Sequence record: NZ_CP090008.1
Length of the DNA: 64,000 bases
Direction: 5' to 3' (one strand)
From: a plasmid
The translations under genes and the position numbers were made by a program. Positions within the stretch are counted from its first letter, which is position 1. Each line of letters opens with the position of its first letter. The notes under the pieces are model-generated. The model was not told the origin of the DNA, did no database searches, and worked only from the letters and a program-made list of their open reading frames with translations. This document shows positions 25,668 to 43,789 of this stretch, piece by piece.

Positions 25668-25796
25668 CTTTTAGCAAATACCATTTTGAAGAGCTGACCT
25701 CAGTTTAACGAGACTGTAAAAGCACTACACATGATTTAATGCTAAGTAAATAGAAGCCATTATAAGAAAGGTTACATATGACTACAGAACAACACA

Positions 25797-26063
25797 ATGG
25801 GGAATGGTCAAGATTGGGTGCGAACAGCGGCAAGCCTCGGTGGAGAAACAGGGTCAACCCCAAAAGCAGGTGCTATTATCTCTTTTGTGGGTGGTGGTCA
25901 TGGCTCAGATGTAGGATGCGAACATGTGAGTTTTGTCGAAAAAGTTTATCCAGATGGGTCATTCCTTATTTCAGAAACGAATGTCAATGACAATCCCAAT
26001 TACACTTTCCGTAAATTATCAGGACCAGATAGTACCATGAGTTTTGCCTATACGAGGAAATAA
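25797..26063 (+). pseudogene. 3' fragment of a CHAP-domain gene
   Basis: GAIISFVGGGHGSDVGCEHVSFVEKVYPDGSFLISETNVNDNPNYTFRKL is a CHAP C-terminal half (His region) with no N-terminal Cys part; last 130 bp duplicated at 27098-27228. Confidence 0.6.
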
Positions 26064-26099
26064 TTTGAGCTAGTTTTTATATCTCAATTGACGTAAAAG

Positions 26100-26128
26100 T
26101 TGACAAAGTCAAGGAAAGTTTATATAAT
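26100..26128 (+). promoter_or_regulatory. consensus sigma-A promoter TTGACA-N17-TATAAT
   Basis: ttgaca aagtcaaggaaagttta tataat. Confidence 0.7.
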
Positions 26129-26134
26129 GAATAT

Positions 26135-26332
26135 GTAAATAAGAGATTACTAACTTGTGGGCTAGTGGATATGGTCTGCACCCGCCTGTGGGCTCCGCAA
26201 GCAGCGTAGACTGTTTGTTGAGAAAAAGAATAGCAGGACTGCCTACCCTTGAGGAATAGATAGGGCATATCTAGCGTGAGGTGAAACTCAATACGTGGAA
26301 GAGAAGGAAGCACGTGCTTCCTTCTCTTTTTT
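26135..26332 (+). ncRNA. candidate ~200-nt structured RNA / cis-regulatory leader of gene 26347
   Basis: Consensus promoter; GC-rich (relative to surroundings) body with repeated CYTGTGGGCT; ends in perfect terminator GGAAGAGAAGGAAGCACGTGCTTCCTTCTCTTTTTT whose 3' side overlaps the RBS of the next gene. Confidence 0.4.
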
Positions 26333-26346
26333 AGGAGAAAATTCAA

Positions 26347-26982
26347 ATGACATATACTTTGGAATGGCTAAAGACATTTGATGGTGAGATTGATATTTTA
26401 AACATTGAGATGTCTTGTTTAGCCAATACGATTGAGAAATATGTTTCTCAGTACAAGTACGTTTATCAGACAAATATGGAGGCCTATCCAGAAATAATTC
26501 TTTCTGTCCCAAATTCCTCTATCCCACATTTATTAGGGCTATCGAGGGAACATCATGTCAATTTACCGACAAATAACGCTGGAAGCATTTTTGAAGGCTT
26601 GAAAGATGACTGGACATTGGAACGTCTCAATGGAGCGGACAATGGTTGGTTTAATGAAAATAAATTTAAAATAGTTGGAACCCTATTGCTCTATCAAATG
26701 TTACATGGAATAGAATGTAAATTCTATACGACGGAAGGTATTTTGAATAGACAGTCAGGAAAACGTTTTAGAAGAGATAATATTTACTTTGTAGTTTTTA
26801 AATTGAGTAATGGAATTCATTATACGGTTGAATTATCACATGAGCGAGGAAATCAATATTTCCCACGAAGTCTAAAAATTAATGATTCATCTATTACAAA
26901 TTGTAGAGAGATTGAACTAACACTGATTGATAAGAAACGTATTAAGAGCTCTAAAGTCCGAAAAGTTAGTTGGTTCTCTTAG
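26347..26982 (+). CDS. hypothetical protein (211 aa)
   Basis: RBS AGGAG embedded in terminator tail; no domain recognised. Confidence 0.55.
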   Translation: MTYTLEWLKTFDGEIDILNIEMSCLANTIEKYVSQYKYVYQTNMEAYPEIILSVPNSSIPHLLGLSREHHVNLPTNNAGSIFEGLKDDWTLERLNGADNGWFNENKFKIVGTLLLYQMLHGIECKFYTTEGILNRQSGKRFRRDNIYFVVFKLSNGIHYTVELSHERGNQYFPRSLKINDSSITNCREIELTLIDKKRIKSSKVRKVSWFS

Positions 26983-27097
26983 AGGAAAAATATGATTGTA
27001 AGATACTGTGCTTACGATACACTATGACAGTCATCCACTAATTGGTGGGTAGCTTTTTCTTTGTCCTTCTTTGATGTGATACCAAGATTAAGCTGTC

Positions 27098-27228
27098 TTT
27101 GTGGAAAAAGTTTATTCAGATGGGTCATTCCTTATTTCAGAAACGAATGTCAATGGCAATCCCAACTATACTTTTAGTAAGCTATCAGGACCAGACAGTA
27201 TCATGAGTTTTGCCTATACGATAAAATA
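27098..27228 (+). repeat. second copy (~90% identical) of CHAP 3' end 25935-26063
   Basis: gt(c/g)gaaaaagtttat(c/t)cagatgggtcattccttatttcagaaacgaatgtcaatg...tttgcctatacg. Confidence 0.7.
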
Positions 27229-27311
27229 AAAAGAATAAGCTAACAAAATGTATCATTGTTAACTTATTCTTTTTATTATTCCTTTACATGGTAGAAGATG
27301 TTGAATGAGCG

Positions 27312-27707
27312 TTAGCATTTGTTTGAAAAGTCTAAGGTACTTACTAAACTAATAATTTCATCAAGGATTTCTGAGAAGGAGATACCTGTTGTATAATTAT
27401 ATTTCTTTGAATAATTTTCCCATTGTTGCTGCTGAGTAATGTCAGACTTGAATGTTCTTAGAAGTTGGATGATGTTGTTAAAATTGAGTTCAGTTTCACG
27501 ATAGGAGAAGGTTCTTTCACAAGCTATCTTTAATTGTTCAAAATCAATGTCATCTTTCTTTAACTTGGAGAGGATATAGACACCGTAAAAATCCTTGTTG
27601 CGACTATTCAAGAAAATTCTTGAGTAAATGGTTTGTAATTTTTCAGCTAAAGATGAAAATACGCTTCCTAAAGTTGTAGAAGGGATGAAGAGGTAGAGGG
27701 AACTCAT
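27312..27707 (-). CDS. hypothetical protein, last gene of GntR-ABC operon
   Basis: 4-nt overlap with upstream permease gene. Confidence 0.45.
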   Translation of the reverse strand: MSSLYLFIPSTTLGSVFSSLAEKLQTIYSRIFLNSRNKDFYGVYILSKLKKDDIDFEQLKIACERTFSYRETELNFNNIIQLLRTFKSDITQQQQWENYSKKYNYTTGISFSEILDEIISLVSTLDFSNKC

Positions 27708-28174
27708 TTTTTTAGGAGCTGCCCAAAGTTGCTCGTAATCAGTAGGAAATCTTTTAAGTCTACGTTAAATGCGGCTATAATAGCAATCGAAGTCAGTACT
27801 ACGAGACTAGAAATCGTATTTAAAATAAAGGCTACAAAAAGTTTCGATAAGATTATTTGGTGGGCAGAACCTGGGAGTGTATTGGTTAGATAACCTTCTC
27901 TCCCAAAGACAGTCTTTGCAAAGCGTCTAATAATAAGGACTATTGTCGCTATATAAATGGCTCCCCATACAATAATAGTGGCAAAACACATCAGTGTGAA
28001 GAAAGCAAAAAAGAGTAGACTAGGTTCTTCGTTACTGTGTTCAAAGGTGAACATTAATTTGTGAAGCATTAAGCCCAAGGGAATAGAGAGTAGGATGGCA
28101 ATACCATAGATGCCAAAATACCACTTGCGGACTGATTGTAATTCAGACTTAACTAAATTCCAAAACATGCTCAT
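27704..28174 (-). CDS. ABC transporter permease-like membrane protein
   Basis: 4 TM helices; follows ABC ATPase. Confidence 0.5.
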   Translation of the reverse strand: MSMFWNLVKSELQSVRKWYFGIYGIAILLSIPLGLMLHKLMFTFEHSNEEPSLLFFAFFTLMCFATIIVWGAIYIATIVLIIRRFAKTVFGREGYLTNTLPGSAHQIILSKLFVAFILNTISSLVVLTSIAIIAAFNVDLKDFLLITSNFGQLLKK

Positions 28175-28275
28175 ACCTCCTAATTGTGGAACATCTCTCT
28201 GAAGAGCTTGTCAATAGACTTGCCATGGGCTTGACGGATATTATCGGCATCTCCTTGAAGTTCAATCTGACCGTA

Positions 28276-28878
28276 TTATAAGAAGACAACTTCATCTAGG
28301 ACAGATTCAATATCTGCAATCAAATGAGTTGAAATAATAACAGAAGCATCTTCAGAGTATTGGTTGATGATAGTTTTAAGGATATAGTCACGTGATGCAG
28401 GATCGACCCCGCCAATAGGTTCATCAAGGAGATAGAGTTTAGCCTCACGACTCATAACCAAAATCAACTGAACTTTTTCTTTGTTACCTTTTGAAAGGTC
28501 TTTAAGGCGCAAATCAGGCTGGAGCTTTAGATCCTCCAAGAGATGTAAGGCAAGAGGATAGCGGAAGTCAGCGTAAAAATCTTGGAAGAAATCCAAGTAG
28601 TACTGGATTGTCTTACTTTCATCTAAATAGGTTGTGTCAGGCAAATAAGCCACTTGCGCCTTAGTGATAGGTGATGGCTGAAATCCATTAATGGTCACTA
28701 AGCCAGAAGTCGGTTGAAGGAGACCGTTCAAAATTTTGATTAGAGTTGTTTTCCCACTACCGTTTGGACCTAAAAGGCCAACAATTTTTCCTGACGGGAT
28801 GGACATGGTCACATCTCTAAGGGCTGGAACACCATTATAAGTTTTGGTGAGATTTGTTAAAGTTACAATATCAGTCAT
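28276..28878 (-). CDS. ABC transporter ATP-binding protein
   Basis: Walker A GPNGSGKTT, signature/Walker B LLDEP; start taken at MTDIVTL (28878). Confidence 0.75.
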   Translation of the reverse strand: MTDIVTLTNLTKTYNGVPALRDVTMSIPSGKIVGLLGPNGSGKTTLIKILNGLLQPTSGLVTINGFQPSPITKAQVAYLPDTTYLDESKTIQYYLDFFQDFYADFRYPLALHLLEDLKLQPDLRLKDLSKGNKEKVQLILVMSREAKLYLLDEPIGGVDPASRDYILKTIINQYSEDASVIISTHLIADIESVLDEVVFL

Positions 28879-28882
28879 CAGT

Positions 28883-29287
28883 CTATAACTCCTTTCCTGT
28901 TTGTTCAATGTAGTCGGTGATAATGGTTTTAATTTTAGGTGAACTAAAGCCAATAGTCATCATTTCAGTGACAAAGTTTTTTATAAGGTTTTGAGCAATT
29001 TCGTGTCGTTTTTGATCAATGAGTTTCTCATCTTCAGTAACGAAGCGACCAGACGTACGAGCAGAATAGACCAAACCCTCTTTTTCAAGTTCTTGGAAGG
29101 CTCTTTGCACAGTGTTTGGATTGACACCGGCTTCCTGAGCGAGTTCCCGAACGGGTAAGAGTTGTTGCCCTATGCTTAATTCTTTGGAAGCAATTTTAAG
29201 TTTGACACGATAGGCGATTTGAAGATAAATGGGTGATTTTTCATCAAATGTCCAAGCCATAAGAGACTCCTTTCTAGGAAATATCAT
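28883..29287 (-). CDS. GntR-family transcriptional regulator (YtrA-like)
   Basis: HTH: LPVRELAQEAGVNPNTVQRAFQELEKEGLV. Confidence 0.75.
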   Translation of the reverse strand: MIFPRKESLMAWTFDEKSPIYLQIAYRVKLKIASKELSIGQQLLPVRELAQEAGVNPNTVQRAFQELEKEGLVYSARTSGRFVTEDEKLIDQKRHEIAQNLIKNFVTEMMTIGFSSPKIKTIITDYIEQTGKEL

Positions 29288-29500
29288 TACATTATTTTTG
29301 TACTATAGTAATGACACAAATAAAAAATATAATTTGCAAGTAAAAATCTATATTTTCTTTAATTTCTTTGGCTTTTCCCTAACTTATATTCTTATTTTTG
29401 GTACAATAGGGGCAAGTATATTCGACCTGAAGGGGGATTATTTTGAATATTTTAGCAACAGAAATCGGAATAAGGAAATTGATACAATAGTATACAAAGA

Positions 29501-29534
29501 AAGCCTTGGAAACAGCTGTTTCCAAGGCTTTTTA
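29501..29534. terminator. hairpin aagccttggaaa-cagctg-tttccaaggctt + TTTT
   Basis: Perfect 12-bp stem; a related hairpin (cccttggaaacttttgttccaagg) recurs at 32314-32336. Confidence 0.5.
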
Positions 29535-29869
29535 GCTGTCATTAGCTACACGGACAAGGTCGTTGGTGATGATGCGTTTTTATGGAGATACCCTTGATTT
29601 GTAAATCGTTAAATTGTATGTTATCAATGGTAATTCCTATAAATATAATTAAGTAATAATGGATGAAATCACTTAGAGTCATTGATTTCAATCGTATTAA
29701 GAGGCTGTACATATAAAAATGCAGCTACTTTCATAAAGTTTCACATAGACCTTATAGGTAAAATGAAACAATTATATATCGATTAAGTTTAGAATGGTTA
29801 TCCAGTTATTCTCCTATTTGACAACTAATCTAAAAAATGTCATAATTGGTTTTATATTAGGAGGTATAA

Positions 29870-30337
29870 ATGGCAGAAAATATAAAAAACTGGGTTAATG
29901 TGTGTGTAGTAAAAAACAATAAAATTCTTTTACTTAATAGACAACATGATGATTTTCCTGGATGGATTCCTCCAGGTGGGAAAGTAGAGTTTCCTGAAAG
30001 TTTCTTTGAAGCTGCTATTCGAGAATTAAAAGAGGAGACTGGTCTAACTGCTTTAAATTTAAAATTAAAAGGTATTTCTGGATTTACCAATACTATTGGT
30101 AACGAAAGGTTCGTATACTACGATTTTTTGTGTACAAATTTTTCTGGAGATATTCGTGCTTCTAGAGAAGGAGAACCTAAATGGTGGAATTTAGAAGATA
30201 TTGAAGAAATATCTATGCAAGAAGAAATTAAAAATAGGTTGCCCCTTTACTTACGTGAAGGAAGTTTTGAAAGTATTAATTACTGGGATGAGTCAAAAAA
30301 ATGTATTAGCCATAATAAAACAATTTTGTTTGATTAA
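29870..30337 (+). CDS. NUDIX hydrolase (MutT-like)
   Basis: Nudix box GGKVEFPESFFEAAIRELKEETGL. Confidence 0.75.
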   Translation: MAENIKNWVNVCVVKNNKILLLNRQHDDFPGWIPPGGKVEFPESFFEAAIRELKEETGLTALNLKLKGISGFTNTIGNERFVYYDFLCTNFSGDIRASREGEPKWWNLEDIEEISMQEEIKNRLPLYLREGSFESINYWDESKKCISHNKTILFD

Positions 30338-30463
30338 ACTTTTTTGATTTGTATAAATAAATATTCTACATCTAGCTATTCAGCTAGGGGTTATTAGCAC
30401 GAATTGAATAAACTATTCGCTACTATATCTCCTATCTTAAATTCATTTATTACTTAAAATTTT

Positions 30464-30995
30464 GGCTCTATAATTTCTGTAGTAGGTAAAACCACTGTAG
30501 GAATTATGGAGTCTATGTTTTTGTAGAAAAAAAGCCCCATAAGACCTATAATGAAAAAGTGGCCAAACCCTCATTAGAAAGAATCTTATGGAACAATTAA
30601 ATTTTATCACAAACATACTTGGAATTAATGACAAAAATATTTTTATCTTAGATTATCTTGATGCTGGAACGCATAAAGAAGTCATTGCTAAGCTCGATTA
30701 TCCTGCCTCTAAATGTCTCAACTGTCAAGGACAAATGGCTAAATATGACTTTCAAAAAGAATCCAAAATCCCCTACCTCGAATGTGCTGGCTACAAGACT
30801 CTCATTCGATTGAGAAAACGCCGTTTCCGCTGTAAAGACTGTGGAAAACATACTAAGATTAGTAGTGAAGAAATCTCCGATGGGAGAGAGTACTCACTAC
30901 TTTTTCTTTATGTTAAAGTAGTGGTGTCTTGTAAAGTCGTAGGGCTCTATGGCGCTAGACGTCGCTTGACAAACTGGCAAGACACCTTGTTTTAG
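30464..30995 (+). mobile_element. ISL3-family IS left end + truncated transposase (N-terminal 90 aa only)
   Basis: GGCTCTATAATTTCTGTAGTAGGTAAAAC terminal repeat; ORF 30588 N-terminus MEQLNFITNILGI...CLNCQGQMAKYDFQKESKIPYLECAGYKTLIRLRKRRFRCKDCGK is the ISL3 zinc-finger N-domain, then frame decays. Confidence 0.7.
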
Positions 30996-31091
30996 GTGGA
31001 GTTTGATCAAAGTATGTGGGACGCTAAACGTCGCGTATTGAAAATATAATCACTAAAACATGGAATTATTCAAGACAAAAGAGGTAATGTC

Positions 31092-32015
31092 ATGCGTGCA
31101 GTATTTGGAATTGATGTAAGTAAAACAAGCTCTGAGGTGGCCATTTTAGTCAACAGTAAGAAGATTAATGGCTACACCATACTCAATGATGCCATTGGGT
31201 TCAATCGCCTGTTGGGCGACTTGAAAACTGTTCATAAACCAACTTACGTGCAGGAAGAAGTTTATCAACACCTGCGTGATTTAAGCCGTTTCTATCAAAA
31301 TATGACAGAAGATCTTGTTCAAACTAAAAACTGTCTGCACAAGGTCCTACAAGTCACCTTTCCTGAATTGGAAAATCTATTATCCACCCCTACTGGAGAG
31401 CAATATTGGAACTTAGTGATGGCTTTTCCATGCAAAGAGTTTATATTAAGCTTATCTCAAAGTAACTTGTGTGAGATTATCCGTCAATCTACCTCCAAAC
31501 GCATCTCTGAAAAGCGTATTGCTTACCTGACTGATAAACTTATAAAACTTGCTAAACAATCTCTTTGTGCGGTCAAGAAAACCTCTCCAATGCTTGAAGA
31601 GGTTCGTTACTATGCTCAAGAATTGCTTCGTCTTTCTGAACGCAGACAAGTTGTCTTAAACGACATGGTAGCTCTAGCTCAGCCTTTACCAGAATATGAC
31701 ATCTTACGGTCAATTCCTGACATCGCAGAAATCACAGCGACATCTATCATTGGCGAATTGGAAGATATTCGTCGCTTTCAGTCTACCAATCAAATCAACG
31801 CTTTTATTGGCATTGACCTGAGACACTATGAATCTGGGAACTTTCTCGCCAAGGAACACATCACTAAACGAGGTAATCCCTATGTCAGAAAAATCTTGTT
31901 CAAGTGCATTCACAACATCGCTTCAGCTAGTCATACCAATCCTTGTCATATCCCAGATTTCTATGAGAAATGTATTACCTCATTACGCATAACAAACTTT
32001 ACGATTACTCTTTGA
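31092..32015 (+). mobile_element. IS110-family transposase (possibly C-terminally truncated, 307 aa)
   Basis: MRAVFGIDVSK N-terminus and DEDD-type N-domain typical of IS110; shorter than usual ~400 aa. Confidence 0.65.
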
Positions 32016-32253
32016 CCCAAAATCGATAAGGTTGTCTATGCCGTATTATTGTAGCACCTTGTTTCAAACAAATACCAGATGAGGTGTTTTTTAGCATGCC
32101 CTTTTATGGATCAAAAAGTGTTAAAAATAAGACAGTAACCTCAGAATAGCTACTGTCTTATCTCTTTTTTTACTTAAAGCCTTGATAGACTTGACAAATG
32201 GTAGAAAAGAGTCGTTTTTCTTTGTGAAACATAGGGAACACCTCACAACTCTT

Positions 32254-32289
32254 CTTATCTCTATTCTTATCTCTATTCTTATCTCTATT
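32254..32289. repeat. 12-bp tandem repeat x3 (CTTATCTCTATT)
   Basis: Direct reading. Confidence 0.8.
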
Positions 32290-32542
32290 ATACGACTTTA
32301 CACAAAGAAAAGCCCTTGGAAACTTTTGTTCCAAGGACTTTGTCTTCAATCTGAGGCCTTGATGATCAATGCTTTTTATATTGCTCAAAAGTCATTCAAC
32401 TTTTATAAGCAAATAATATACTCCACTTATTGTGAGAGTGTGCATGAATATTTAAAGGATTAGAATGTGACATATGTGGGACTTGTTTTGAAATTAATAA
32501 AATATGATAATTAATACAAGATAACTGAAGGAAGAAAAAATA

Positions 32543-32773
32543 ATGAATGGGATAGGTTATATACTTAGGAGGTTACGGAAAGAAAAAGGGATTACACAGA
32601 GAGTTATCTATACAAATCTTTGTAGTCGAAAGCAACTTTCTAGGATAGAAAATAATACATCTTTCCCATCAGTATATCTTTTATATCATATTTGCCAAAG
32701 ATTAGAAGTGACAATAGATGAAGTTATCAAATTAACATTAGAAGGAGAAAGTAATGGCAATCAGCACAAGTGA
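32543..32773 (+). CDS. short XRE/Rgg-like HTH transcriptional regulator (76 aa)
   Basis: ILRRLRKEKGITQRVIYTNLCSRKQLSRIENNTSFPSVYLLYHICQRLEV; overlaps start of QueA-like gene. Confidence 0.6.
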   Translation: MNGIGYILRRLRKEKGITQRVIYTNLCSRKQLSRIENNTSFPSVYLLYHICQRLEVTIDEVIKLTLEGESNGNQHK

Positions 32774-33800
32774 ATTAAAGTATGAATTACCGGTCGAATT
32801 AGCTGCTCGACAACCTATAGAACTGACATCGAGTAGAAGGGATGGAACTAGATTAATAGTAGGTTTTAAAAACTCTCAAAAAATCATTGATGATGTTTTT
32901 ACAAATTTTACTAACTATATAAATTCAGGAGACTTACTTATTTTAAATAATAGTAAAACAATTTCACCAATTTTTTATGCATATTCCGATAAATATGGAG
33001 AGGTGAAATTTCATATTAAGACTAAGACTGATTTAGGATATGTATCATATATCAGAATTAGAGAAGATTTAAAAGATAAAATTATTGGTGAGAACTTTAT
33101 TGTAACTGATGAAATAGAAGTATCTGTAAATAAACGAACTGAAGGCGATGAATTTTTGTGTAGTTTTAATTGTTCTGAAGAGGATTTGTATAACTATTTA
33201 TTAATTAATGGTGAGGCAGTGAAATCAATTTATACAAAGAAAAAATGGTCAATTGATTATTATCAAAATGAAGTTGCAAATAAATTAGGATCTTTTGAAA
33301 ACCCAGCAGCGAGTCGGCACTTTACTAATAAAATGTTAAATATTTTACGTGAAAAAGGGGTAAGAATCGCGTATATTACTTTAAATTGTGCTTCGGTTGA
33401 TACAAAAATTTTTGAGGATATTATAGAGAAACATGTTGTTTTTAAGGAATACTATGAGATCCCCGAAGAAACAGTAAGATTAATTCAAGAAACAAAATTA
33501 AACGGTAATAAGGTGTTTGCGGTTGGAACTACAGTTATTAGGACTTTAGAAAGCTGTAATTATGATAATTTCAGAATTACTTCCCCTTTAAAAAATTATA
33601 CTGATTTATATATTCATCCTGGACATAATTTTAAAGTAACAGATGCTTTAATTACAAATTTTCATGGATCAATGACTAGTAGACTTGCTCTTTCTGCAGC
33701 TGCAATTGGTGTGGATAATATTATGAATTTATACAAACATGCAATCGAAGAAAAATATTTATTTTATGAGTTTGGGGATGCGAATTTATTATTCATGTAG
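32754..33800 (+). CDS. QueA-like S-adenosylmethionine:ribosyltransferase-isomerase paralog
   Basis: Collinear with QueA: YELPVELAARQP..., GDLLILNNSKTI, VGTTVIRTLES (QueA VGTTSTRTLE), ITNFHGSMTSRLALSAA, YKHAIEEKYLFYEFGDANLLF (QueA YxHAxEExYRFFSFGDAMLI). Confidence 0.75.
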   Translation: MAISTSELKYELPVELAARQPIELTSSRRDGTRLIVGFKNSQKIIDDVFTNFTNYINSGDLLILNNSKTISPIFYAYSDKYGEVKFHIKTKTDLGYVSYIRIREDLKDKIIGENFIVTDEIEVSVNKRTEGDEFLCSFNCSEEDLYNYLLINGEAVKSIYTKKKWSIDYYQNEVANKLGSFENPAASRHFTNKMLNILREKGVRIAYITLNCASVDTKIFEDIIEKHVVFKEYYEIPEETVRLIQETKLNGNKVFAVGTTVIRTLESCNYDNFRITSPLKNYTDLYIHPGHNFKVTDALITNFHGSMTSRLALSAAAIGVDNIMNLYKHAIEEKYLFYEFGDANLLFM

Positions 33801-33831
33801 TTTAGTAAATAACTAGAAAGGGGGTGATGAT

Positions 33832-33906
33832 ATGAAGAAGTTGACATTGAAAGAACTGGTTGATAAAAATAATGATTTGCTCTCACGTTGCACAATCAAT
33901 AAATAA
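33832..33906 (+). CDS. candidate 24-aa precursor peptide MKKLTLKELVDKNNDLLSRCTINK
   Basis: Strong RBS AAAGGGGGTG 6 nt upstream; located between QueA-like and PqqD-like genes. Confidence 0.4.
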   Translation: MKKLTLKELVDKNNDLLSRCTINK

Positions 33907-33972
33907 TTAACCACGGAAAAATCCAATGAAGAATGATATTATTTCTTCATTGGAGTTTATTTTGGAGGGCTT

Positions 33973-34239
33973 ATGCTTTATAAAGTTAATCGAGACGTAG
34001 AAATAACAGAAGAAAATGGATATCAAGTTATTCATAGATATTCAGATGATTCGTATTTTTCCTTAGAAAATGATACTTTGTTTATTTTATTGAGTTATAA
34101 TGGTTTAAATAAATTGCAAGATATTGCAAAAAGCTTTGCAAAATATAAAGGAATTTCTAATAACAAAGCTTTAGAATACGTAGAACAAATCCAAAAATAT
34201 TTAGTTTCAGAAGGAATAATTGTCATAGATGAGAACTAA
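33973..34239 (+). CDS. PqqD-like (RiPP recognition element) protein
   Basis: 88 aa; ...FSLENDTLFILLSYNGLNKLQDIAKSFAKYKGISNNKALEYVEQIQKYLVSEGIIV matches PqqD pattern. Confidence 0.55.
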   Translation: MLYKVNRDVEITEENGYQVIHRYSDDSYFSLENDTLFILLSYNGLNKLQDIAKSFAKYKGISNNKALEYVEQIQKYLVSEGIIVIDEN

Positions 34240-35095
34240 ATCTAAGTTATTTAATAATATAGCAGAAGATAATATAGACTCCCTTTATGTACAATTGTGT
34301 AATTTAATATATAAAAATGGTAAAGTTGTAATTTCGAGAGGCATGGAGGTAAAAGAATTAATTGGGGTTAACTTAATTTTAACTAATCCCAAAAGACGCT
34401 TTTTAGAAAATGCCAACAGAAAATTAAAACTATACTACGCTATTGGAGAATTCATATGGTATATGAGGGGGAGTAATAGTTTAGAGGAAATTCAGTATTA
34501 TGCCCCTAGCATGTCACAGTTTTCTGATGATGGTTCTATTCTTCAAGGAGCTTATGGACCTAAGATTGTAACTCAAATCGATAAATTGATTACACTGCTA
34601 AGACATGACAAGGGGACTCGTAGGGCAGTTTTACCTATTTATTCTGCGAGTGAATTAGGTAAAGATAGTAAAGATATCCCATGCACACTCACATTAGAGT
34701 TTTTGATTCGAGCTAATAAGCTTCATCTCATTGTCAATATGAGATCAAACGACATATTTTTGGGGCTTCCGTATGATATTTTTTCTTTCACAATGATTCA
34801 GGAATACATTGCAAATAAGATAGGTCTAAATTTAGGATATTATTATCATAATATCGGAAGCTTACATGTCTATAAGAAACATTTTGATAGAATAAAAGAA
34901 ATATCAACTATGAATATACATAAAACATCAGAATTCAATAACTCAAATTTAATCTTTAAAAATTTAAGTGATTTGTTAAACATTGAAAAATCAATTAGAA
35001 ACGGAAGTCCATACAATATGAGCAAGGAATTACTTAATAATTCGGATTTCAATAGAATAAAGATTGAACTAGAGAAATATAAGGATAGTAGGTGA
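34229..35095 (+). CDS. thymidylate synthase-fold pyrimidine-nucleotide hydroxymethylase/methylase-like enzyme
   Basis: LKLYYAIGEFIWYMRGS (ThyA WKGVLEELLWFLKGS), RRAVLPIYSASELGKDSKDIPCTLTLEFLIRANKLHLIVNMRSNDIFLGLPYDIFSFTMIQEYIA (ThyA RRIIMSAWNP...PPCHALCQFYV...[25 protein letters not shown]); catalytic Cys retained. Confidence 0.7.
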   Translation: MRTKSKLFNNIAEDNIDSLYVQLCNLIYKNGKVVISRGMEVKELIGVNLILTNPKRRFLENANRKLKLYYAIGEFIWYMRGSNSLEEIQYYAPSMSQFSDDGSILQGAYGPKIVTQIDKLITLLRHDKGTRRAVLPIYSASELGKDSKDIPCTLTLEFLIRANKLHLIVNMRSNDIFLGLPYDIFSFTMIQEYIANKIGLNLGYYYHNIGSLHVYKKHFDRIKEISTMNIHKTSEFNNSNLIFKNLSDLLNIEKSIRNGSPYNMSKELLNNSDFNRIKIELEKYKDSR

Positions 35096-35098
35096 GAA

Positions 35099-35683
35099 AT
35101 GTCTATCGGAAAACTAATCTATATATGTGGAATTGATGGTTCTGGGAAAACAACATTAGCCAAGAATCTTTCTAATCATTTTGGTGATAAATCAATATTT
35201 TTGCCATTAAATAATTCAAAAAGATTCATTAATGAAATTGATAGTTTCTGTAAAGAGTATAATACAGACAGGTGGAGTATATTTTCAGAATATTTTAGGG
35301 GAAATATTTGGGCGTTAGAGCTAGTTTATTTTTGTGAAAATATTTTAAAACCCGCTCTAAAAAAGTACGAATATGTATTCATCGATAGATATTATATATG
35401 TAATGCTATATATTCTAATTTATTAGTCACTAATAAGTTGGTTAATAGACTGCATGAATTACTGATTAAACCAGACATGGTTTTTTATATCAATATTAAT
35501 CCAGAGATCGCTTTTGAAAGAATTTTAAAAAGGAATGAGCAAAAAACGCCGAAAGAAAGTTTGGACAATTTAAAATTAGCTTCTGATTTATATTCAAGAT
35601 ATCTTGAAGATAAAAGTTATTATGAATTAGACGGAGAGAAGTCAGAGAATCAAATTTTAAAGTCTGTATTACAAATTATTTAG
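35099..35683 (+). CDS. dTMP-kinase-like P-loop nucleotide kinase
   Basis: LIYICGIDGSGKTTLAKNL (Tmk Walker A GIDGxGKTT); 194 aa. Confidence 0.65.
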   Translation: MSIGKLIYICGIDGSGKTTLAKNLSNHFGDKSIFLPLNNSKRFINEIDSFCKEYNTDRWSIFSEYFRGNIWALELVYFCENILKPALKKYEYVFIDRYYICNAIYSNLLVTNKLVNRLHELLIKPDMVFYININPEIAFERILKRNEQKTPKESLDNLKLASDLYSRYLEDKSYYELDGEKSENQILKSVLQII

Positions 35684-35699
35684 AATTTAGGATTAAGAT

Positions 35700-36689
35700 A
35701 TGAAATTTGAAACAGTACTAGATTTTTATATATACTATTTGGAAATCCTTCTGAAAAGGGAAAAAAATCATACTAAAGTTGTCCCATTTTCGGAGATAGC
35801 TAATAAAGTCGAGGTTTTCAACAATAGTATTGAGATTGTTCAAGGAACTCATAGTAATATGCTATTTAGTAGATCTGAATTTAATTATAATGTAGTGCAT
35901 ATGCTATATTCTTTGAGTGGGAGAACAGATTCATATATATTAAAAAAATATAAAAGTTCATATTGGCGATATTCGAATGAGGGATTTTATGTCAATACAA
36001 TTGGGGAGCGGTTATATACTTTATATGGTAATCAAATTAAACGTTGTGTAAATTTTTTAAAAGAAAATATTTATACGTCAGATGCCGTTTGTTTTATGAA
36101 ATCTTTTGAAAATGAAAATATTGAATGTACTCTAAATCTTCATTTTTATTATAGAGATAATCGATTAAATTTGGAGTTATCATATAAAGGTTCTAGTTTA
36201 TTAGAGTATACTAACTCCGATCTATTTATTTATTCTTCTTTACTTTCATTAATGAGCCATTGGTTAGATGTGGAACCTGGAAGTTTATTTTTAAAATGTC
36301 ACTCGATTTTTATTTCAGAAAATGATCTAGAAAGAGCTAAGAAACTATTAGAAATTGGTAAATCGTTGAGAAATATTGGTATTTCAATGAATCATAGGTT
36401 TTCATCCAGTATTGAAACTTATCGTTCAGAATTTTCTGAAGCTATCAATAGAATAATTGCTTGGGATACTGTTGATATTACTCAGAGAGTTTCTGAGGAA
36501 TTAGAGTATATAAAAAAGTATTTTACTCCATATATTCAAGACTTGTTACTTATTCTTTTAGCGGATAGATTTCATCAAACTGATAGTGATTATAAAATAG
36601 TATTGAGTCAGCTCTCAGATAGGTCAATTGGGAAATTTAAGGAAACAATTGATAAAATACAATTTAATAAATTATTAGAGGTAATTTAA
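35700..36689 (+). CDS. second thymidylate synthase-fold paralog
   Basis: SDAVCFMKSFENENIECTLNLHFYYRDNRLNLELSYKGSSLLEYTNSDLFIYSSLLSLMSHWLDVEPGSLFLKCHSIFI aligns to ThyA C-terminal half incl. catalytic Cys position. Confidence 0.55.
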   Translation: MKFETVLDFYIYYLEILLKREKNHTKVVPFSEIANKVEVFNNSIEIVQGTHSNMLFSRSEFNYNVVHMLYSLSGRTDSYILKKYKSSYWRYSNEGFYVNTIGERLYTLYGNQIKRCVNFLKENIYTSDAVCFMKSFENENIECTLNLHFYYRDNRLNLELSYKGSSLLEYTNSDLFIYSSLLSLMSHWLDVEPGSLFLKCHSIFISENDLERAKKLLEIGKSLRNIGISMNHRFSSSIETYRSEFSEAINRIIAWDTVDITQRVSEELEYIKKYFTPYIQDLLLILLADRFHQTDSDYKIVLSQLSDRSIGKFKETIDKIQFNKLLEVI

Positions 36690-36691
36690 AT

Positions 36692-36952
36692 TTGATAATT
36701 AAAAAGAGTCTTGCTGCTATACAACGTTCAGTATCAGGAAATGAATTTTTGTTAAATTTACTTACTGATAGGACTTTTCTCCTTAATGAAGTTTCTCTCT
36801 ATATTTGGAGTAATCTTGGAGAATGTAGTACTGAGGAAATAGCTGCAAATTTATCTAAAATGTATAATGAAAAAACCGAGATAATTCAAAATGATGTAGA
36901 TGAAGTTATTAATATTTTACAGGAAGAAGGGTTAATTGAAATTCTGAATTAA
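36692..36952 (+). CDS. PqqD-family RiPP recognition element protein (TTG start)
   Basis: LLNEVSLYIWSNLGECSTEEIAANLSKMYNEKTEIIQNDVDEVINILQEEGLIE = classic PqqD pattern. Confidence 0.65.
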   Translation: MIIKKSLAAIQRSVSGNEFLLNLLTDRTFLLNEVSLYIWSNLGECSTEEIAANLSKMYNEKTEIIQNDVDEVINILQEEGLIEILN

Positions 36953-36970
36953 GAGAGGTGGAGGATATTA

Positions 36971-37657
36971 ATGGCTGAAATTATTTATAGTATGATTGCT
37001 AATGAGATTTCAGAGCAATTGTCAGAGGATAATATTGTAATTTGGAAATCTGAGATGGATGGACTGGGGACCTCATTATCTGATATCGATGCATATTGTA
37101 TCTGCAAGGAAGAAAAAGTAATAAAAAGCTTTGTATATGAAGGGACACCGGTTGATATTGAATATGTGACTTCGGAAAGGCTAAAAGCTAAAATTAATAA
37201 AATTTATCAATACACTAATCATGGTGATATTTATAAAGGATTAGATGAAGATTTGAAATTATTTTACAGATTACAAAGAGGAGAGAAATCAGCTAAATTT
37301 TCATTGATTGGAGTTGAAGTTCCCACACTTGAGGAAATTTCTAAGATTGCAGCACAATATTATTATGAATTATTTTTAGGTCTGTATGAAGATGCTTATA
37401 AAATGTACCATGGGAAAAATAAATTAGATTCTTTTGTCCTTTCCCTAGAGACATTACAAATGTCTATTGCAACTTATTTAGCTAGGGTAGGGAAACCACA
37501 ATTTAAGAAAAAATGGCTATTTAAATATTTTAATATAGTAGCTAACAATTCCCTATATAAAGATTTAATTACACAATTAGAATCAACACAGGAATATGAT
37601 TTAATGGAATTCACAGAGAGTATACTAGTCAATTCAAAAAAGCTTCTAGAAATTTAG
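36971..37657 (+). CDS. Pol-beta superfamily nucleotidyltransferase
   Basis: MDGLGTSLSDIDAYCI (G[SG]x9-13Dx[DE] motif). Confidence 0.55.
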   Translation: MAEIIYSMIANEISEQLSEDNIVIWKSEMDGLGTSLSDIDAYCICKEEKVIKSFVYEGTPVDIEYVTSERLKAKINKIYQYTNHGDIYKGLDEDLKLFYRLQRGEKSAKFSLIGVEVPTLEEISKIAAQYYYELFLGLYEDAYKMYHGKNKLDSFVLSLETLQMSIATYLARVGKPQFKKKWLFKYFNIVANNSLYKDLITQLESTQEYDLMEFTESILVNSKKLLEI

Positions 37658-37857
37658 TATATTGAAAGGAGGTGAGATTATGGTCTATAAAAAACCTATT
37701 GTTGAAGATATTAAATTAAGTGCCTCTGCATTACTTGTATAATATCTTAGTATAAGTCGGAGAGTTGAACAGAATAATTATGTAGTTAATATGACTAACA
37801 GGAAGTATTACTACAAAAAATTCTGTTCAACTTTCCATTTTTTATAGAGTAATAAAA

Positions 37858-38664
37858 ATGAGCAAAATTAGGTATATCATAATAAAGATACTATTACATC
37901 AATTTTACGGAATCAAAAATATAAAATTAATAAATTGTGTTAAAAATATGAATAAAGTTTATATTTTTGAAGATATCAACAAAAAGGTCAAAATGGTTTT
38001 AAAAGTAGAATCTGAAAGAAGAATTAATTCGATCAAGTACCAACATATATTTTCCAATTATGGGATATCGCCAAAAATAATTAAAACTAGAACAGGAAGA
38101 CAGTATATAAAGATTTATAGATTGGTAATATTTGTACAAGAGTATGTAACATCTAGTAAAAGAAAGGTCACTTCAACAGAGATTGTGGGATTTTTAAAAT
38201 ATTTTTACGGAAAAATGGATGAAATAAGAGAATATTTACCCGAAGTTTTGACTACTTATCCATTATATAAGCAAGGCGCATTAAGTAAATGGTTTTATGT
38301 AGTCCATGGTGATTTACGTCCACAAAATATTATCATTACCAGGGATAGTTTTAGCGTGATTGATTTTGAGTATTTAAGTCTAGGAATTCGAGAAACTGAA
38401 ATTCTCAAGTTAATTATAATAATTTGTAAATATCAAAGTAATTTGATTGAATCGCTATATTCTAAATTCTTAGAATCAGACGTAATAGAAATGCATATAG
38501 AGGAGGCGATAAGGGTTCTTTTGTATGATCTTCTTAAATCAAATTTTCCTGAAAAGGTCAAGAATAATATTCCAAAGAATTATTTTTTAGAAATAACTTC
38601 TGAAAGGGAGGCATTAATAAACTTTTGCCATACATATTTAAAAAGAAAGGAATCCCAAAAATGA
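37858..38664 (+). CDS. APH/choline-kinase-like phosphotransferase
   Basis: FYVVHGDLRPQNIIITRDSFSVIDFEY (HGDxxxxN ... IDFE catalytic/Mg motifs). Confidence 0.6.
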   Translation: MSKIRYIIIKILLHQFYGIKNIKLINCVKNMNKVYIFEDINKKVKMVLKVESERRINSIKYQHIFSNYGISPKIIKTRTGRQYIKIYRLVIFVQEYVTSSKRKVTSTEIVGFLKYFYGKMDEIREYLPEVLTTYPLYKQGALSKWFYVVHGDLRPQNIIITRDSFSVIDFEYLSLGIRETEILKLIIIICKYQSNLIESLYSKFLESDVIEMHIEEAIRVLLYDLLKSNFPEKVKNNIPKNYFLEITSEREALINFCHTYLKRKESQK

Positions 38665-39710
38665 TTTCAACTGAGATTGAGAAAAAATATCTACTTACAA
38701 AAGAAGAATTTCTATCCTTTAGTAGAGATTTTTTTAAAAGTGCAAAAATTCAAGAACAAACTAATTATTATTTTGATAGTTTAGATTTTTCACTATTAAA
38801 GAGAGGAATGACTCTTAGAATTCGAGAAAAATATGATAAATATATTTTAACATTAAAGAAAAAGAAATCAGTCAAAATAATTGTAGAATCGGAAGAAATT
38901 AATTTCGTAATTACACCGCAAGACTTTCAAGAGGCAATCTTAACTGGAGAATTTCCCCAAAATGTAAAGAAAGAACTAGACTCATTAATTCCCGAAAAGA
39001 AAATTTTTTATCTAGGTTTTCTAAAAACTAAAAGATATGTAATCGAAAAAAATTCTTTGATATATTGTTTAGATAAAAATAATTATTTTGGAAAGGAGGA
39101 TTTTGAATTAGAAATTGAAGGAACAGAGAAAGGACTAAAAGAAATTGAAATTGATATTTCCAAGAGCAAATCTAATAATGTTGGAAAATATGCTAGATTT
39201 ATTGATGAATTATTGAAAGGAAACGGTAATTATCTGATTAAAACTCAAGTGTCTGCAATTATTCTTAATAAAAGTAGCGATAAAGTTTGTCTTATTAAGA
39301 AGGATATTCCAACCTCAAGTATACATAATATGTGGCTTCCACCCGGTGGACATATCGATTTTGGAGAAAATTTAATAGATGCTGTCAAAAGAGAGGTCTA
39401 TGAAGAGACAGGGTTAGAAGTTACGGTTTCAAAATTATCTAGCATTGTATCGTTTCATCAAAAAAAGGCAGAGCAAGCTATTTGTTTCTTTTATGTCGCA
39501 GAATCCCAAAATATTAATGAAATAAATGTCACTGAGCCAGGCATTGAATGCAGGTGGTTTAATTTAAAAGATATACTAAGTGGAGATGATATAAATATGA
39601 CATCCTATCATAAGCTTATAATATCCGACTTGCAAGATAACAGGATTTTATATTTGAATTTAAAAAAATCTGATAATCAATATAATATTGAAAATATAGT
39701 TCATATTTAA
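38661..39710 (+). CDS. CYTH (triphosphate tunnel) - NUDIX fusion protein
   Basis: N-terminus MISTEIEKKYLL (CYTH EIE[RK]KFL start); C-terminal Nudix box GGHIDFGENLIDAVKREVYEETGL; ATGA overlap with kinase gene. Confidence 0.6.
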   Translation: MISTEIEKKYLLTKEEFLSFSRDFFKSAKIQEQTNYYFDSLDFSLLKRGMTLRIREKYDKYILTLKKKKSVKIIVESEEINFVITPQDFQEAILTGEFPQNVKKELDSLIPEKKIFYLGFLKTKRYVIEKNSLIYCLDKNNYFGKEDFELEIEGTEKGLKEIEIDISKSKSNNVGKYARFIDELLKGNGNYLIKTQVSAIILNKSSDKVCLIKKDIPTSSIHNMWLPPGGHIDFGENLIDAVKREVYEETGLEVTVSKLSSIVSFHQKKAEQAICFFYVAESQNINEINVTEPGIECRWFNLKDILSGDDINMTSYHKLIISDLQDNRILYLNLKKSDNQYNIENIVHI

Positions 39711-39894
39711 AAGATTAAAACTAGTTATATATAAAATCTAGGTATAACTGTTCCACTGAATTCCATAGATATAATTAGCTTCTTAAATGTAGGGCTATTT
39801 TATAGCTTGAATATACAATATAAGTGCACAATAAAAACTCATAAGATTTTCTAGTAAAATAGAATTGAACGAACTAGTTACGAAAGGAAATCTT

Positions 39895-40881
39895 ATGAGC
39901 TACCATCATTTTACTATAGATGAACGTGAAAGCATTCTCGTTTACCGTACGCATGACCTAAATTTTTCTCAAATTGCTAAATCACTTCATCGTCATTAGT
40001 CTAGCAGTAGTGGTGAGTGGCAACGACATCTTAAAGAAGGAAGCTATTCTCCAAGTCATGCATAGGAATCTTATCATATGGCTAAATCACACTGTGGGCG
40101 GAAACGTATGCTTGAAATAGATCACAATTTAAGCAATACCGTCAAACATCTATTTCTCGATTACCAATGGTCTCCCGAAGAAATAGAAGGTCGGTTGCGA
40201 TTAGAGTATGGAAAAACTGTTATTAGTTATCAAACAATCTATAGAGCCATTTACAGAGGGCATTTTGATGATAACTCACTATCTCATGGTGCTCGTGGTG
40301 TCATTCGAAAGCTCCGTCATCGTGGTAAAACACGTCATACAAAAGGTTATGTCGAAAATAGAGGGAAAATCTCTATATCTCATACAATTCACGAAAGACT
40401 AGAAGATGCTAATAACCGAACTAGAATAGGAGATTGGGAAGCCGATACTGTTGCAGGTAAAACTAGAAAAGCTTGTTTAGTGACTCTAACTGACCGTTAT
40501 TCTCGTTTTCTAAAAATCCAGAAGGTAGCTGTCAAGAAAAGCAAGTTGGTAATAGAAGCTATGGTAAAAATGTTAGAGCCCTTGACGAAGCATACAATAA
40601 CTCCTGATAGAGGGAAAGAATTCACGTATCATCAGAAATTGAGCGATCAATTGAACATTGAAGTCTATTTTCCTGACCCTCATGCTCCATGGCAACGAGG
40701 AACCAATGAGAACACGAAAGGATTACTTTGAGAGTATTTTCCAAAGGGTAGTGATCTAACATTGGTTGATGATCAGACTATTCAGCTGTGGGAGAACAAA
40801 CTTAATAATAGGCCACGAAAATGTCTTAACTGGAAAACACCTTATGAAGTATTCTATGGGGAAAGTATGCACTTAATTTGA
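39895..40881 (+). pseudogene. IS30-family transposase, disrupted by stop codons/frameshift
   Basis: MSYHHFTIDERESILVYR...(stop)...RIGDWEADTVAGK...TPDRGKEF...HAPWQRGTNENTKGLL(stop)EYFPKG; reading frame broken at least twice. Confidence 0.7.
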
Positions 40882-40953
40882 CAATTCAAGAGTAAAATAA
40901 ATTTAGAAGACATATTTTTATTTGATTTAAGTTATTTGATTTAAGGAGGCGAA

Positions 40954-41745: not shown

Positions 41746-41763
41746 GTGAAGGAGAGAAATAAA

Positions 41764-43535: not shown

Positions 43536-43789
43536 ATCGTGCTTAACTAGCTATTTAAATTTAGAGTAATTATTTCATTTAATTTATATTTTATCAATAA
43601 TAAAGGGGTAGTACTAAGGAAAAATTATATAGAGAGTTAGCTGAATCCTCTTCGAAACTCAGTGAAAAATAGTTCAATTATTGTTTCGTCAGATCAACAC
43701 GATTTAATCATTTGATACAATGCTCATATCTTTCAATACTCAATTGTTTTTACAACTTTTGGATGTTTAATTTATACAGTCTACGATTT

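Follow-up and report, generated by a model that had tools for sequence, protein, structure and literature searches.

A QueA paralog linked to PqqD genes: a probable peptide-modifying enzyme in a plasmid-borne cluster of Streptococcus salivarius

We analysed a 64,000-nucleotide stretch of the plasmid record NZ_CP090008.1 (the window), which carries a gene for a full-length homolog of QueA, the S-adenosylmethionine (SAM):tRNA ribosyltransferase-isomerase of the queuosine pathway. Sequence comparison indicates that this gene is a real QueA paralog and not the housekeeping copy. Its product is probably a peptide-directed enzyme rather than a tRNA enzyme, that is, a neofunctionalised QueA acting as the shared tailoring enzyme of an undescribed family of clusters for peptides that are ribosomally synthesised and then modified after translation (RiPPs). 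The support is comparative and comes from the paralog status of the gene, the recurrent linkage of the enzyme with a PqqD-type protein and a precursor open reading frame (ORF), a conserved cysteine in the predicted peptides, and the family assignments of the neighbouring genes.

Divergence from canonical QueA

The QueA-like ORF opens with ATG and is intact over all of its codons (Table 1). Its product matches the Pfam family PF02547 (Queuosine_synth) with an E-value of 1.4e-73, residues 6-346 covering profile positions 2-322 of 322, and phmmer aligned it end to end with the QueA structures 1vky (E 3e-51) and 1yy3 (E 7e-45). An AlphaFold2 model reached a predicted local distance difference test score (pLDDT) of 93.7, and a Foldseek search of the PDB with this model retrieved QueA structures only (E 1e-27 to 7e-25). 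An earlier reading made from the letters alone (the sequence-only reading) had described a full-length, end-to-end QueA paralog with the motifs VGTT..RTLE and, at the C-terminus, FGDA. Both descriptions were borne out, the motifs reading VGTTVIRTLE at residues 257-266 and FGDAN at residues 340-344, and the public annotation of the gene is SAM:tRNA ribosyltransferase-isomerase. However, the protein missed both NCBIfam cut-offs for QueA equivalogs, scoring 225.5 bits against the required 324 for NF001140 and 215.4 against 267.45 for TIGR00113.

The sequence-only reading had proposed to compare the residues that contact preQ1-tRNA. That part could not stand as worded, since no substrate-bound QueA structure exists according to a 2023 review of non-methyl SAM chemistry, for which reason the QueA mechanism itself is still inferred. 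A contrast of conservation was used instead. Between 98 canonical QueA sequences (including those of Thermotoga maritima, Bacillus subtilis and Escherichia coli) and 32 paralogs, there are 33 columns in which a residue conserved in at least 90% of the canonical proteins is kept by no more than 10% of the paralogs. Another 38 core columns are invariant in both sets, and this kept core includes LNxS, Y160, Y170, GS..P.A..HF, H227, E232, VGTT..R..E, TNFH and FGD. Among the switched positions are the canonical basic residues R79, K84 and R336 (T. maritima numbering). The clade-specific replacements turn, for example, PLPPY into V/I-x-S-x-Y, A183 into E, L189 into R, GTFxP into SS(I/V), L305 into G, L310 into R and S339 into E; E182, R188, G305, R310 and E339 are clade-specific gains, and the window paralog bears the signature T69 S158 E182 A185 R188 G305 R310 A312 E339.

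The same division was seen on a larger scale. An exhaustive HMMER search of 1.84 billion representative sequences with the paralog profile yielded 4532 strong QueA-family matches, of which the best 150 were sorted by a ten-residue canonical signature (V75 P159 A183 T186 L189 T217 L305 L310 M312 S339 in T. maritima numbering). These best 150 of the 4532 matches comprised 15 paralog-type, 120 canonical and 15 intermediate proteins, so that the paralog family appears to be rare. At the ten positions the window protein has T S E A R D G R A E, whereas the 120 diverse canonical proteins read VPATLTLLMS or close to it. In neighbour-joining trees, 43 signature-bearing sequences separated from 45 diverse canonical sequences in 200 of 200 bootstraps, and the subclade that holds the window protein was recovered in 182 of 200. 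Two further clades of our first tree, labelled B and C, were not each monophyletic once sequences had been added and were dropped; only the split between paralogs and canonical proteins and clade A are well supported. The window protein is 35-37% identical to canonical QueAs, compared with 39-45% to paralogs of distant genera that share its synteny. The paralogs are also acidic (median isoelectric point 5.8, net charge -6), whereas canonical representatives are basic (median 8.6, net charge +3; p 2.6e-6). This acidity fits a loss of RNA binding, with composition and phylogeny as confounders of the comparison. The window protein is expected to work like QueA, yet it departs from the tRNA enzyme in three defining features, namely its score against the equivalog models, the residues that hardly vary in canonical proteins and its genomic setting.

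Linkage to PqqD and a predicted precursor

The genomic context was compared across 18 distinct paralog-encoding loci from Firmicutes, Actinobacteria and Proteobacteria (numbered L001 and so on where they have to be told apart). They fall into at least five architectures and come from Streptococcus, Gemella, Geobacillus, Brevibacillus, Bacillus, Clostridia, Actinobacteria and an Acetobacteraceae genome. A PqqD-type gene lies immediately beside the QueA-like gene in 17 of the 18 loci, although in the streptococcal and Gemella loci and in L023 it was recognised only by its similarity to the window's first PqqD-like RiPP recognition element (RRE1) or by position. Nowhere in these loci does a paralog adjoin tgt. 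The sequence-only reading had reported no tgt or queC-F genes nearby, and this holds for the annotated parts of the window, where Pfam and NCBIfam searches over 23.8-47.7 kb found none and the annotations of the flanking backbone are unrelated. Rfam likewise reported no preQ1 riboswitch in the window. Its sole match there (93.8 bits, gathering threshold 63) was the streptococcal small RNA Srn266, which lies upstream of the cluster with a NUDIX gene on one side and an ISL3 remnant on the other.

RRE1 itself has no Pfam match, and its counterparts in several other loci likewise gave none to PqqD. It does align end to end with a hidden Markov model (HMM) made from those neighbours in related loci that Pfam confirms as PqqD, and its positional counterparts in the Geobacillus/Brevibacillus loci L002 and L006 are PqqD proteins by Pfam. 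The PqqD proteins adjacent to QueA-like genes in three cluster types (type A of Geobacillus and Brevibacillus, type B and type C) match one another with 40-60 bits, compared with 24-42 bits to the second PqqD of their own cluster. This likeness across types argues that the enzyme and its PqqD have been inherited as a module.

In 14 loci a small ORF stands beside the QueA-like/PqqD pair, in most cases with a sequence resembling a ribosome-binding site upstream. The predicted products often have a YxxPxL-type leader, followed by a core of the form hydrophobic-[A/S]-(x)-Cys in which the cysteine is invariant and lies 0-7 residues from the C-terminus. In the window, the 24-codon ORF directly downstream of the QueA-like gene, which the sequence-only reading had missed, is preceded by a strong ribosome-binding site (AAAGGGGGTGATGAT, 5' of its ATG), and the C-terminal part of its predicted product reads ...DLLSRC-TINK, with the cysteine at residue 20. 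The corresponding end is ...DLLACC-NATK in S. mitis, ...VFSSC-GSK in L001 and ...LTLSC-KLM in the Acetobacteraceae locus, while Clostridia precursors carry ...GLAL[AS]C[CG]... and those of Actinobacteria ...GLAMAC[AC].... The Geobacillus/Brevibacillus precursors (L002, 11059-11214; L006, 11057-11206) contain three tandem F[S/A/N]KCR(x)D units, which suggests that one precursor is modified at multiple sites or releases several small products.

The genes around this core differ widely. Type A, to which the window belongs, has two thymidylate-synthase-fold (TS-fold) proteins, kinases, a nucleotidyltransferase, and CYTH and NUDIX domains; type B has TldD/PmbA, a glycosyltransferase of family GT4, a PIG-L deacetylase, a radical-SAM enzyme and an AlkZ-like glycosylase; type C has proteins of no assigned family, an AlkZ-like glycosylase, a DAO-family oxidase and a major facilitator superfamily transporter. 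Elsewhere, non-canonical QueA-like genes stand with SnoaL, a weak PqqD match, a SPASM-type radical-SAM enzyme and a B12-type radical-SAM enzyme (L024, 1654-6368), or with a sulfotransferase, a luciferase-like oxidoreductase and an ATP-grasp enzyme (contig P0199). Judged by these gene contents, secondary metabolism seems to have taken up QueA-like proteins on several occasions. Since only the enzyme, PqqD and the peptide are common to all architectures, a peptide is the most economical common substrate. The window cluster shows hallmarks of a RiPP pathway, namely a predicted precursor ORF with leader and core, recognition elements of the PqqD fold, and ABC genes for export or immunity. Thus the suggestion of the sequence-only reading that this QueA acts on a substrate other than tRNA, possibly a peptide, gains comparative support from the divergence, the plasmid location and the linkage to PqqD and a cysteine-bearing small ORF. 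The RiPP setting, which that reading had not noticed, makes the peptide the most likely acceptor.

Proposed chemistry and rival explanations

To our knowledge, no enzyme other than QueA takes a ribosyl group from SAM. Because the 38 core residues and the QueA fold are kept, SAM-dependent ribose transfer with isomerisation is the default chemistry to be expected of the paralogs. From the gene content we infer an acceptor atom, a transferred group, an order of steps and an antibiotic role, as follows. The adjacent PqqD-like protein would bind the 24-residue precursor by its leader and present it to the QueA-like enzyme, which would run QueA chemistry on SAM with the invariant cysteine near the peptide C-terminus in place of the preQ1-tRNA amine. 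Deprotonation at C5' would expel adenine, the cysteine thiolate would add as nucleophile to the resulting vinyl sulfonium, and attack of the ylide on C1' would close the ring and form an epoxide with loss of methionine; for QueA itself, these steps (adenine loss, vinyl sulfonium, ring closure through the ylide, methionine loss) are summarised in the 2023 review. The product would be an S-linked epoxy-dihydroxycyclopentyl (carbasugar) cysteine with a predicted mass shift of +114.03 Da. In the streptococcal type A cluster, the MilA-like hydroxymethylase and the dNMP kinase may then supply a 5-modified (5-hydroxymethyl) cytosine nucleotide, which the second PqqD and the nucleotidyltransferase would attach to the modified peptide, with the APH-like kinase adding a further decoration. 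The CYTH-NUDIX protein might hydrolyse nucleotide by-products or protect the producer, and the ABC transporter would export the presumably antimicrobial product.

The tailoring enzymes in all architectures come from families that act on hydroxyls of sugars, cyclitols or nucleotides, such as the APH-like kinase and the nucleotidyltransferase of the window and the GT4 and PIG-L proteins of type B, and they therefore fit a carbasugar handle; the catalytic motifs of the window's tailoring enzymes are intact. A GT4 and PIG-L pair is also used in the assembly of mycothiol and bacillithiol. Carbasugar formation specifically on cysteine is nevertheless a tentative proposal, which we rate somewhat below an even chance. 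We give a similarly guarded standing, short of probable, to the wider reading that QueA-like enzyme and PqqD define a new RiPP family that places a SAM-ribose-derived epoxy-dihydroxycyclopentyl group on a cysteine thiol, a handle that the individual clusters elaborate differently. If it is true, ribosyl donation by SAM would be known from a second case, and for the first time with a protein as substrate. GT4 and PIG-L in type B would then give mycothiol-like pseudo-disaccharides, the AlkZ-like genes that often accompany them would suggest self-resistance to a DNA-alkylating epoxide, and the streptococcal cluster would lead to a peptide-carbocycle-nucleotide antibiotic from common human oral commensals.

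Several other explanations have to be weighed against a peptide-directed enzyme. That the gene is a housekeeping queA, or a recent and still tRNA-specific duplicate carried on a mobile island, would agree with the full-length fold, the named motifs and the public label. It is scarcely credible in view of the missed equivalog cut-offs, the 33 changed near-invariant positions with R79, K84 and R336 among them, the lower identity to canonical QueAs than to syntenic paralogs of distant genera, and the plasmid location with no tgt or preQ1 riboswitch found. In addition, a survey of 1,599 complete Streptococcus genomes reported QueA orthologs in every one of them and queuosine synthesis de novo in all S. 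salivarius strains, with QueA and TGT always on the chromosome; the plasmid gene is therefore an extra copy, as judged from the genus and not from the chromosome of this strain. The sequence-only reading had conceded that a sole queA with fully conserved substrate-binding residues might simply be the housekeeping gene, and both the survey and the switched positions point the other way. A module for anti-phage defence or DNA hypermodification, in which the QueA-like protein modifies DNA or depletes nucleotides, is very unlikely. It would account for the position on a mobile element and for the P-loop kinase and the NUDIX domain having weak PADLOC matches among candidate-system models, and a TS-fold hydroxymethylase with a dNMP kinase and a pyrophosphatase does resemble phage modules for hypermodified pyrimidines. 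However, the other seven proteins, including the QueA-like, TS-like, PqqD, nucleotidyltransferase and APH-like ones, had no PADLOC match, the annotated cluster genes include no transglycosylase of the TGT/DpdA type and no component that binds DNA, the two PqqD genes, the leader-core small ORF and the ABC-2 exporter are typical of RiPP clusters, and the cluster occupies the bacteriocin slot of the megaplasmid.

The nucleotide-metabolism genes of type A raise the question of whether the acceptor is a small nucleotide or nucleoside made by the neighbours, such as a pyrimidine whose 5-aminomethyl or 5-hydroxymethyl substituent imitates the aminomethyl of preQ1, with the peptide modified by other enzymes or serving as a scaffold. 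Two TS-fold genes, one of them MilA-like, a dNMP kinase and a NUDIX domain do surround the QueA-like gene in every type A locus, and the natural nucleophile of QueA is a primary amine on a heterocyclic CH2 group according to the 2023 review. Yet the paralog, PqqD and the peptide recur in types B and C and in L024 without TS-fold or other nucleotide genes, where the neighbour of the paralog is PqqD and not a nucleotide enzyme, which makes this explanation quite improbable. An unlikely alternative, but one to be kept in view, retains the RiPP role and changes the reaction: the acceptor would be an amine (a lysine or a new N-terminus), or another group would be transferred from SAM, for example aminocarboxypropyl or the product of a partial reaction in which no epoxide forms. 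The acceptor of canonical QueA is an amine, many cores have a lysine 1-4 residues from the cysteine, the streptococcal enzymes differ at G187 and H211, and the TldD/PmbA or CPBP proteases of some clusters could expose an N-terminal cysteine. On the other hand, several cores have no lysine (SCATIT in L009, ACGSSCC in L016 and ACACGPLGTGQ in Glycomyces) while the cysteine is invariant. Enzymes that depend on a recognition element also normally act before the leader is removed, and the 38 QueA core residues are kept.

Some observations weigh against the preferred reading of a peptide-directed, cysteine-modifying enzyme. A thiol acceptor is without precedent in QueA chemistry, an amine (lysine, or the N-terminus after leader cleavage) may take its place, and a separate small molecule could arise from the nucleotide-metabolism genes. 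The precursor ORF of 24 codons is a prediction and the whole case is comparative; the P0199 locus, a contig fragment of 4.7 kb, shows no PqqD; and the wider clade that includes the intermediate, mixed-signature relatives was found in only 48 of 100 bootstraps. The streptococcal QueA-like proteins carry S187 and N211, where the other clade A paralogs and five canonical reference QueAs have G and H in the motifs AAG[R/L]HF and TLH. Catalysis could therefore be altered or lost, which would represent either a lineage-specific catalytic change or partial decay. Finally, a remnant of an IS30-family insertion sequence separates the biosynthetic genes from the transporter genes in the window; it may impair the operon and uncouple export or immunity in this plasmid.

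Cluster genes, plasmid setting and known systems

The cluster extends over 32543-43535 (Table 1). The sequence-only reading had taken the QueA-like gene as its first gene, which proved not strictly correct: a gene for an XRE-type helix-turn-helix protein precedes it and overlaps its start, and such a gene also stands before the QueA-like gene in L005 and L001. At the other end, 1243 bp lie between the CYTH-NUDIX gene and the ABC genes (39711-40953), compared with 53 bp in S. mitis and Gemella, where the genes run uninterrupted from the QueA-like gene to the ABC transporter. The IS30 piece is thus an insertion, and the cluster reaches 43535. The ABC genes are syntenic and 68-71% identical in the S. 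mitis loci L011-L013, and they are present in L002 too.

Table 1. Features of the QueA-like cluster and its surroundings in the window
Feature	Position	Strand	Evidence and remarks
Stand-alone NUDIX gene	29870-30337		cargo upstream of the cluster
Srn266 small RNA	30464-30575	-	Rfam
IS110 transposase gene	31092-32015		flanks the cluster
XRE-family helix-turn-helix regulator, 76 aa	32543-32773	+	Pfam HTH_19 E 7.8e-9, HTH_3 E 1.1e-7; 20-nt overlap with QueA-like start
QueA-like SAM enzyme, 348 aa	32754-33800	+	PF02547, QueA fold, clade support; proposed peptide-modifying ribosyl-transferase/isomerase
Predicted precursor peptide, 24 aa	33832-33906	+	MKKLTLKELVDKNNDLLSRCTINK; strong ribosome-binding site; counterparts in 14 loci
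PqqD-like RiPP recognition element 1 (RRE1), 88 aa	33973-34239	+	custom PqqD HMM E 1.4e-7; presumed partner of the QueA-like enzyme
TS-fold enzyme 1, MilA-like (d)CMP C5-hydroxymethylase	34229-35095	+	PF00303 E 1.1e-29
dTMP/dNMP-kinase-like P-loop kinase, 194 aa	35099-35683	+	PF02223 E 2.4e-22; P-loop GIDGSGKT
TS-fold protein 2, 329 aa, highly diverged	35700-36689	+	PF00303 24.3 bits, exactly at cut-off
PqqD RiPP recognition element 2, 86 aa	36692-36952	+	PF05402 E 2.4e-11
DNA polymerase beta (Pol-beta)-superfamily nucleotidyltransferase, helical (HEPN-like) C-terminal half, 228 aa	36971-37657	+	motif GLGTSLSDIDAY...VDIEY
APH/protein-kinase-fold phosphotransferase, 268 aa	37858-38664	+	PF01636 APH E 1.3e-5; HGDLRPQN (HxDxxxxN) and DFE intact
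CYTH-NUDIX fusion	38625-39710	+	CYTH E 3.1e-21, NUDIX E 1.9e-15; ExExK (EIEKK), complete NUDIX box
IS30-family transposase remnant	40078-40731	+	NCBIfam transpos_IS30 E 1.7e-57, profile positions 31-236 of 267; inserted, non-functional part
ABC-2 permease	40954-41745	+	Pfam ABC2_membrane; predicted export or self-immunity
ABC ATPase	41746-42744	+	Pfam ABC_tran; predicted export or self-immunity
ABC-2 permease	42741-43535	+	Pfam ABC2_membrane_3; predicted export or self-immunity

The best solved relative of TS-fold enzyme 1 is the CMP 5-hydroxymethylase MilA of mildiomycin biosynthesis (5b6d, E 3.9e-37). In the alignment to this structure it keeps the catalytic cysteine (IPCTL), RSND and an aspartate (PYD) at the Asn177-equivalent position, where aspartate marks the cytosine-specific members of the fold. 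As it falls below all NCBIfam equivalog cut-offs for thymidylate synthase, it is not a housekeeping ThyA. TS-fold protein 2, which is conserved in all type A loci, has kept its cysteine (ECTL), and its phosphate-binding RSxD reads KGSS with loss of the arginine. The P-loop kinase scored 81.3 bits against the TIGR00041 cut-off of 83.25. The second PqqD matches NCBIfam models of lasso-peptide PqqD chaperones weakly. Pfam gave no match for the nucleotidyltransferase that follows it. Orthologs of this gene always lie after the second PqqD, and the one in L023 passes Pfam NTP_transf_2 and matches the HMM of the window family (1.9e-19). The true orthologs in L002, L006 and L007 are genes for 251-257 residues after the second PqqD; proteins of about 228 residues in the same loci were rejected as orthologs, with 14-18% identity and a different motif, GINPATP. 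For the APH-like kinase, the nearest solved sequence, a corramycin phosphotransferase, was not a significant match (E 0.08). The CYTH-NUDIX gene more likely starts at the ATG at 38661, which gives 349 residues and agrees with the gene call in L005.

Some features of the related clusters were noted in passing. The rejected GINPATP proteins (L002, 15500-16186; L006, 15484-16191; L007, 7553-8239 on the minus strand) have no Pfam match and are absent from the streptococcal clusters; their motif recalls the GINPG of MUG/UDG, and they could be pyrimidine N-glycosidases or base-handling enzymes. In S. mitis B_009152_10 (L011, 11136-11956) the APH-like kinase gene is split into two ORFs and is probably a pseudogene, whereas it is intact in the window, L012 and L013. 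Genes for CPBP/Rce1-like proteases occur in the type A clusters L001 (16294-16803), L002 (17406-18122) and L023 (13384-14070), and none was found in the window cluster. The precursors of these protease-bearing clusters have the cysteine 2-5 residues from the C-terminus, which resembles CaaX processing, where the tail is cut after S-alkylation of the cysteine. AlkZ-like DNA-glycosylase genes (PF06224) recur in QueA-like clusters without TS-fold genes (L008, 17230-18267; L009, 10490-11617; L010, 15420-16487; L015, about 19588-20655; L016, 10325-11362; L021, 17659-18840). AlkZ-type enzymes confer self-resistance against DNA-crosslinking natural products, and their recurrence hints that the products of these clusters may be DNA alkylators, possibly by way of a QueA-type epoxide.

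The QueA-like protein and its neighbours have been deposited from Streptococcus salivarius, and the exact protein was seen on 599 contigs of that species. A near-identical cluster member comes from S. intermedius, and close relatives are also found in S. mitis and Gemella. Positions 1-23.7 kb and 44.4-64 kb of the window match the backbone of S. salivarius megaplasmids (92-96% identity); the stretch between them varies, with lantibiotic genes at about this place in sister plasmids. By this alignment, the cluster occupies the bacteriocin cargo slot of the megaplasmid. Its G+C content is 27-30%, compared with 34-41% around it. A megablast search of PLSDB with the cluster returned insertion-sequence elements only, and no megaplasmid deposited there carries it. 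A scan of 32000-44500 for promoters and terminators was uninformative: 79 promoter-like sites were counted where 74 would be expected, and the terminator-like sites all lay upstream (32123-32341). Next to the cluster, the cargo at 23862-32015 encodes a 601-residue protein that has a non-specific endonuclease domain, fragments of CHAP and of an AbiEii toxin, and a GntR regulator with an ABC ATPase, in addition to the stand-alone NUDIX gene, an ISL3 zinc-ribbon remnant and the IS110 transposase gene; by annotation this region is a patchwork of mobile and defence-type genes that have decayed. In L010 (3444-6359), a gene for LanM, a class II lanthipeptide synthetase, lies directly beside a type B QueA-like cluster together with an upstream LytTR-type response regulator and a histidine-kinase gene. 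From such settings, QueA-like loci appear to gather in bacteriocin islands.

Several known systems share parts of this organisation. Canonical QueA has in common with the paralogs the two-domain fold, the end-to-end alignment and the 38 core residues; the paralogs differ in the 33 switched positions, the acidity and the link to PqqD in nearly all loci, and the window protein in its score below the equivalog cut-offs. With RiPP pathways that depend on PqqD-type recognition elements (lasso peptides, sactipeptides, pyrroloquinoline quinone and others), the clusters share a stand-alone PqqD beside the modifying enzyme, a short leader-core precursor, ABC export and, in some loci, TldD/PmbA or CPBP proteases. 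Unlike in those pathways, the class-defining enzyme is a QueA homolog, for which no counterpart was found in any described RiPP class, and the window cluster is without a lasso cyclase, radical-SAM enzyme or YcaO. TS-fold enzyme 1, with its cysteine and cytosine-type aspartate, links the window to the MilA-type cytosine C5-hydroxymethylation of mildiomycin and bacimethrin (peptidyl-nucleoside antibiotics). However, the window has a ribosomal-peptide cluster with two PqqD genes and a second, degenerate TS-fold paralog, and no N-glycosidase gene of the MilB/BlsM type was found in it. Microcin C resembles the presumed product in combining a ribosomal peptide with a nucleotide (here probably a modified cytosine nucleotide) and a SAM-derived non-methyl group, as introduced with MccD, and L002, L006 and L007 encode a pyridoxal-phosphate-dependent decarboxylase, as is MccE. 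By contrast, a Pol-beta-type nucleotidyltransferase with a recognition element would attach the nucleotide here, and the conserved residue is an internal cysteine and not a C-terminal asparagine. Moreover, no ThiF-like domain was found by Pfam or NCBIfam in any cluster protein, and since the defining ThiF/E1-like adenylyltransferase MccB is lacking, we do not count the cluster as a microcin C member. Phage modules for thymidine or cytosine hypermodification likewise combine a TS-fold hydroxymethylase with P-loop or other kinases that possibly activate the 5-hydroxymethyl group, but the window cluster is not in a phage, has no DNA-level transferases and is tied to a precursor and an exporter. 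A literature search returned nothing that links QueA to RiPPs or PqqD, with thin coverage of subscription journals, and an earlier description is possible.

Taken together, the paralog lies in a RiPP-type cluster that is conserved and seems not to have been described, probably a RiPP pathway whose class-defining enzyme is new. In the 2023 review, ribose transfer from SAM is described only for QueA, and a peptide-directed branch would widen known SAM chemistry. If the proposed reaction is correct, RiPPs would gain a new class, marked by a carbocyclic modification that bears an epoxide, and the peptide would be a small and tractable substrate for dissecting the QueA mechanism. Surveys of the queuosine pathway would be led astray by the public label of SAM:tRNA ribosyltransferase-isomerase that these paralogs carry. 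The streptococcal version is common and lies in the megaplasmid bacteriocin slot of probiotic-type oral commensals, and its product could matter for competition within the oral microbiome and as an antibiotic lead.

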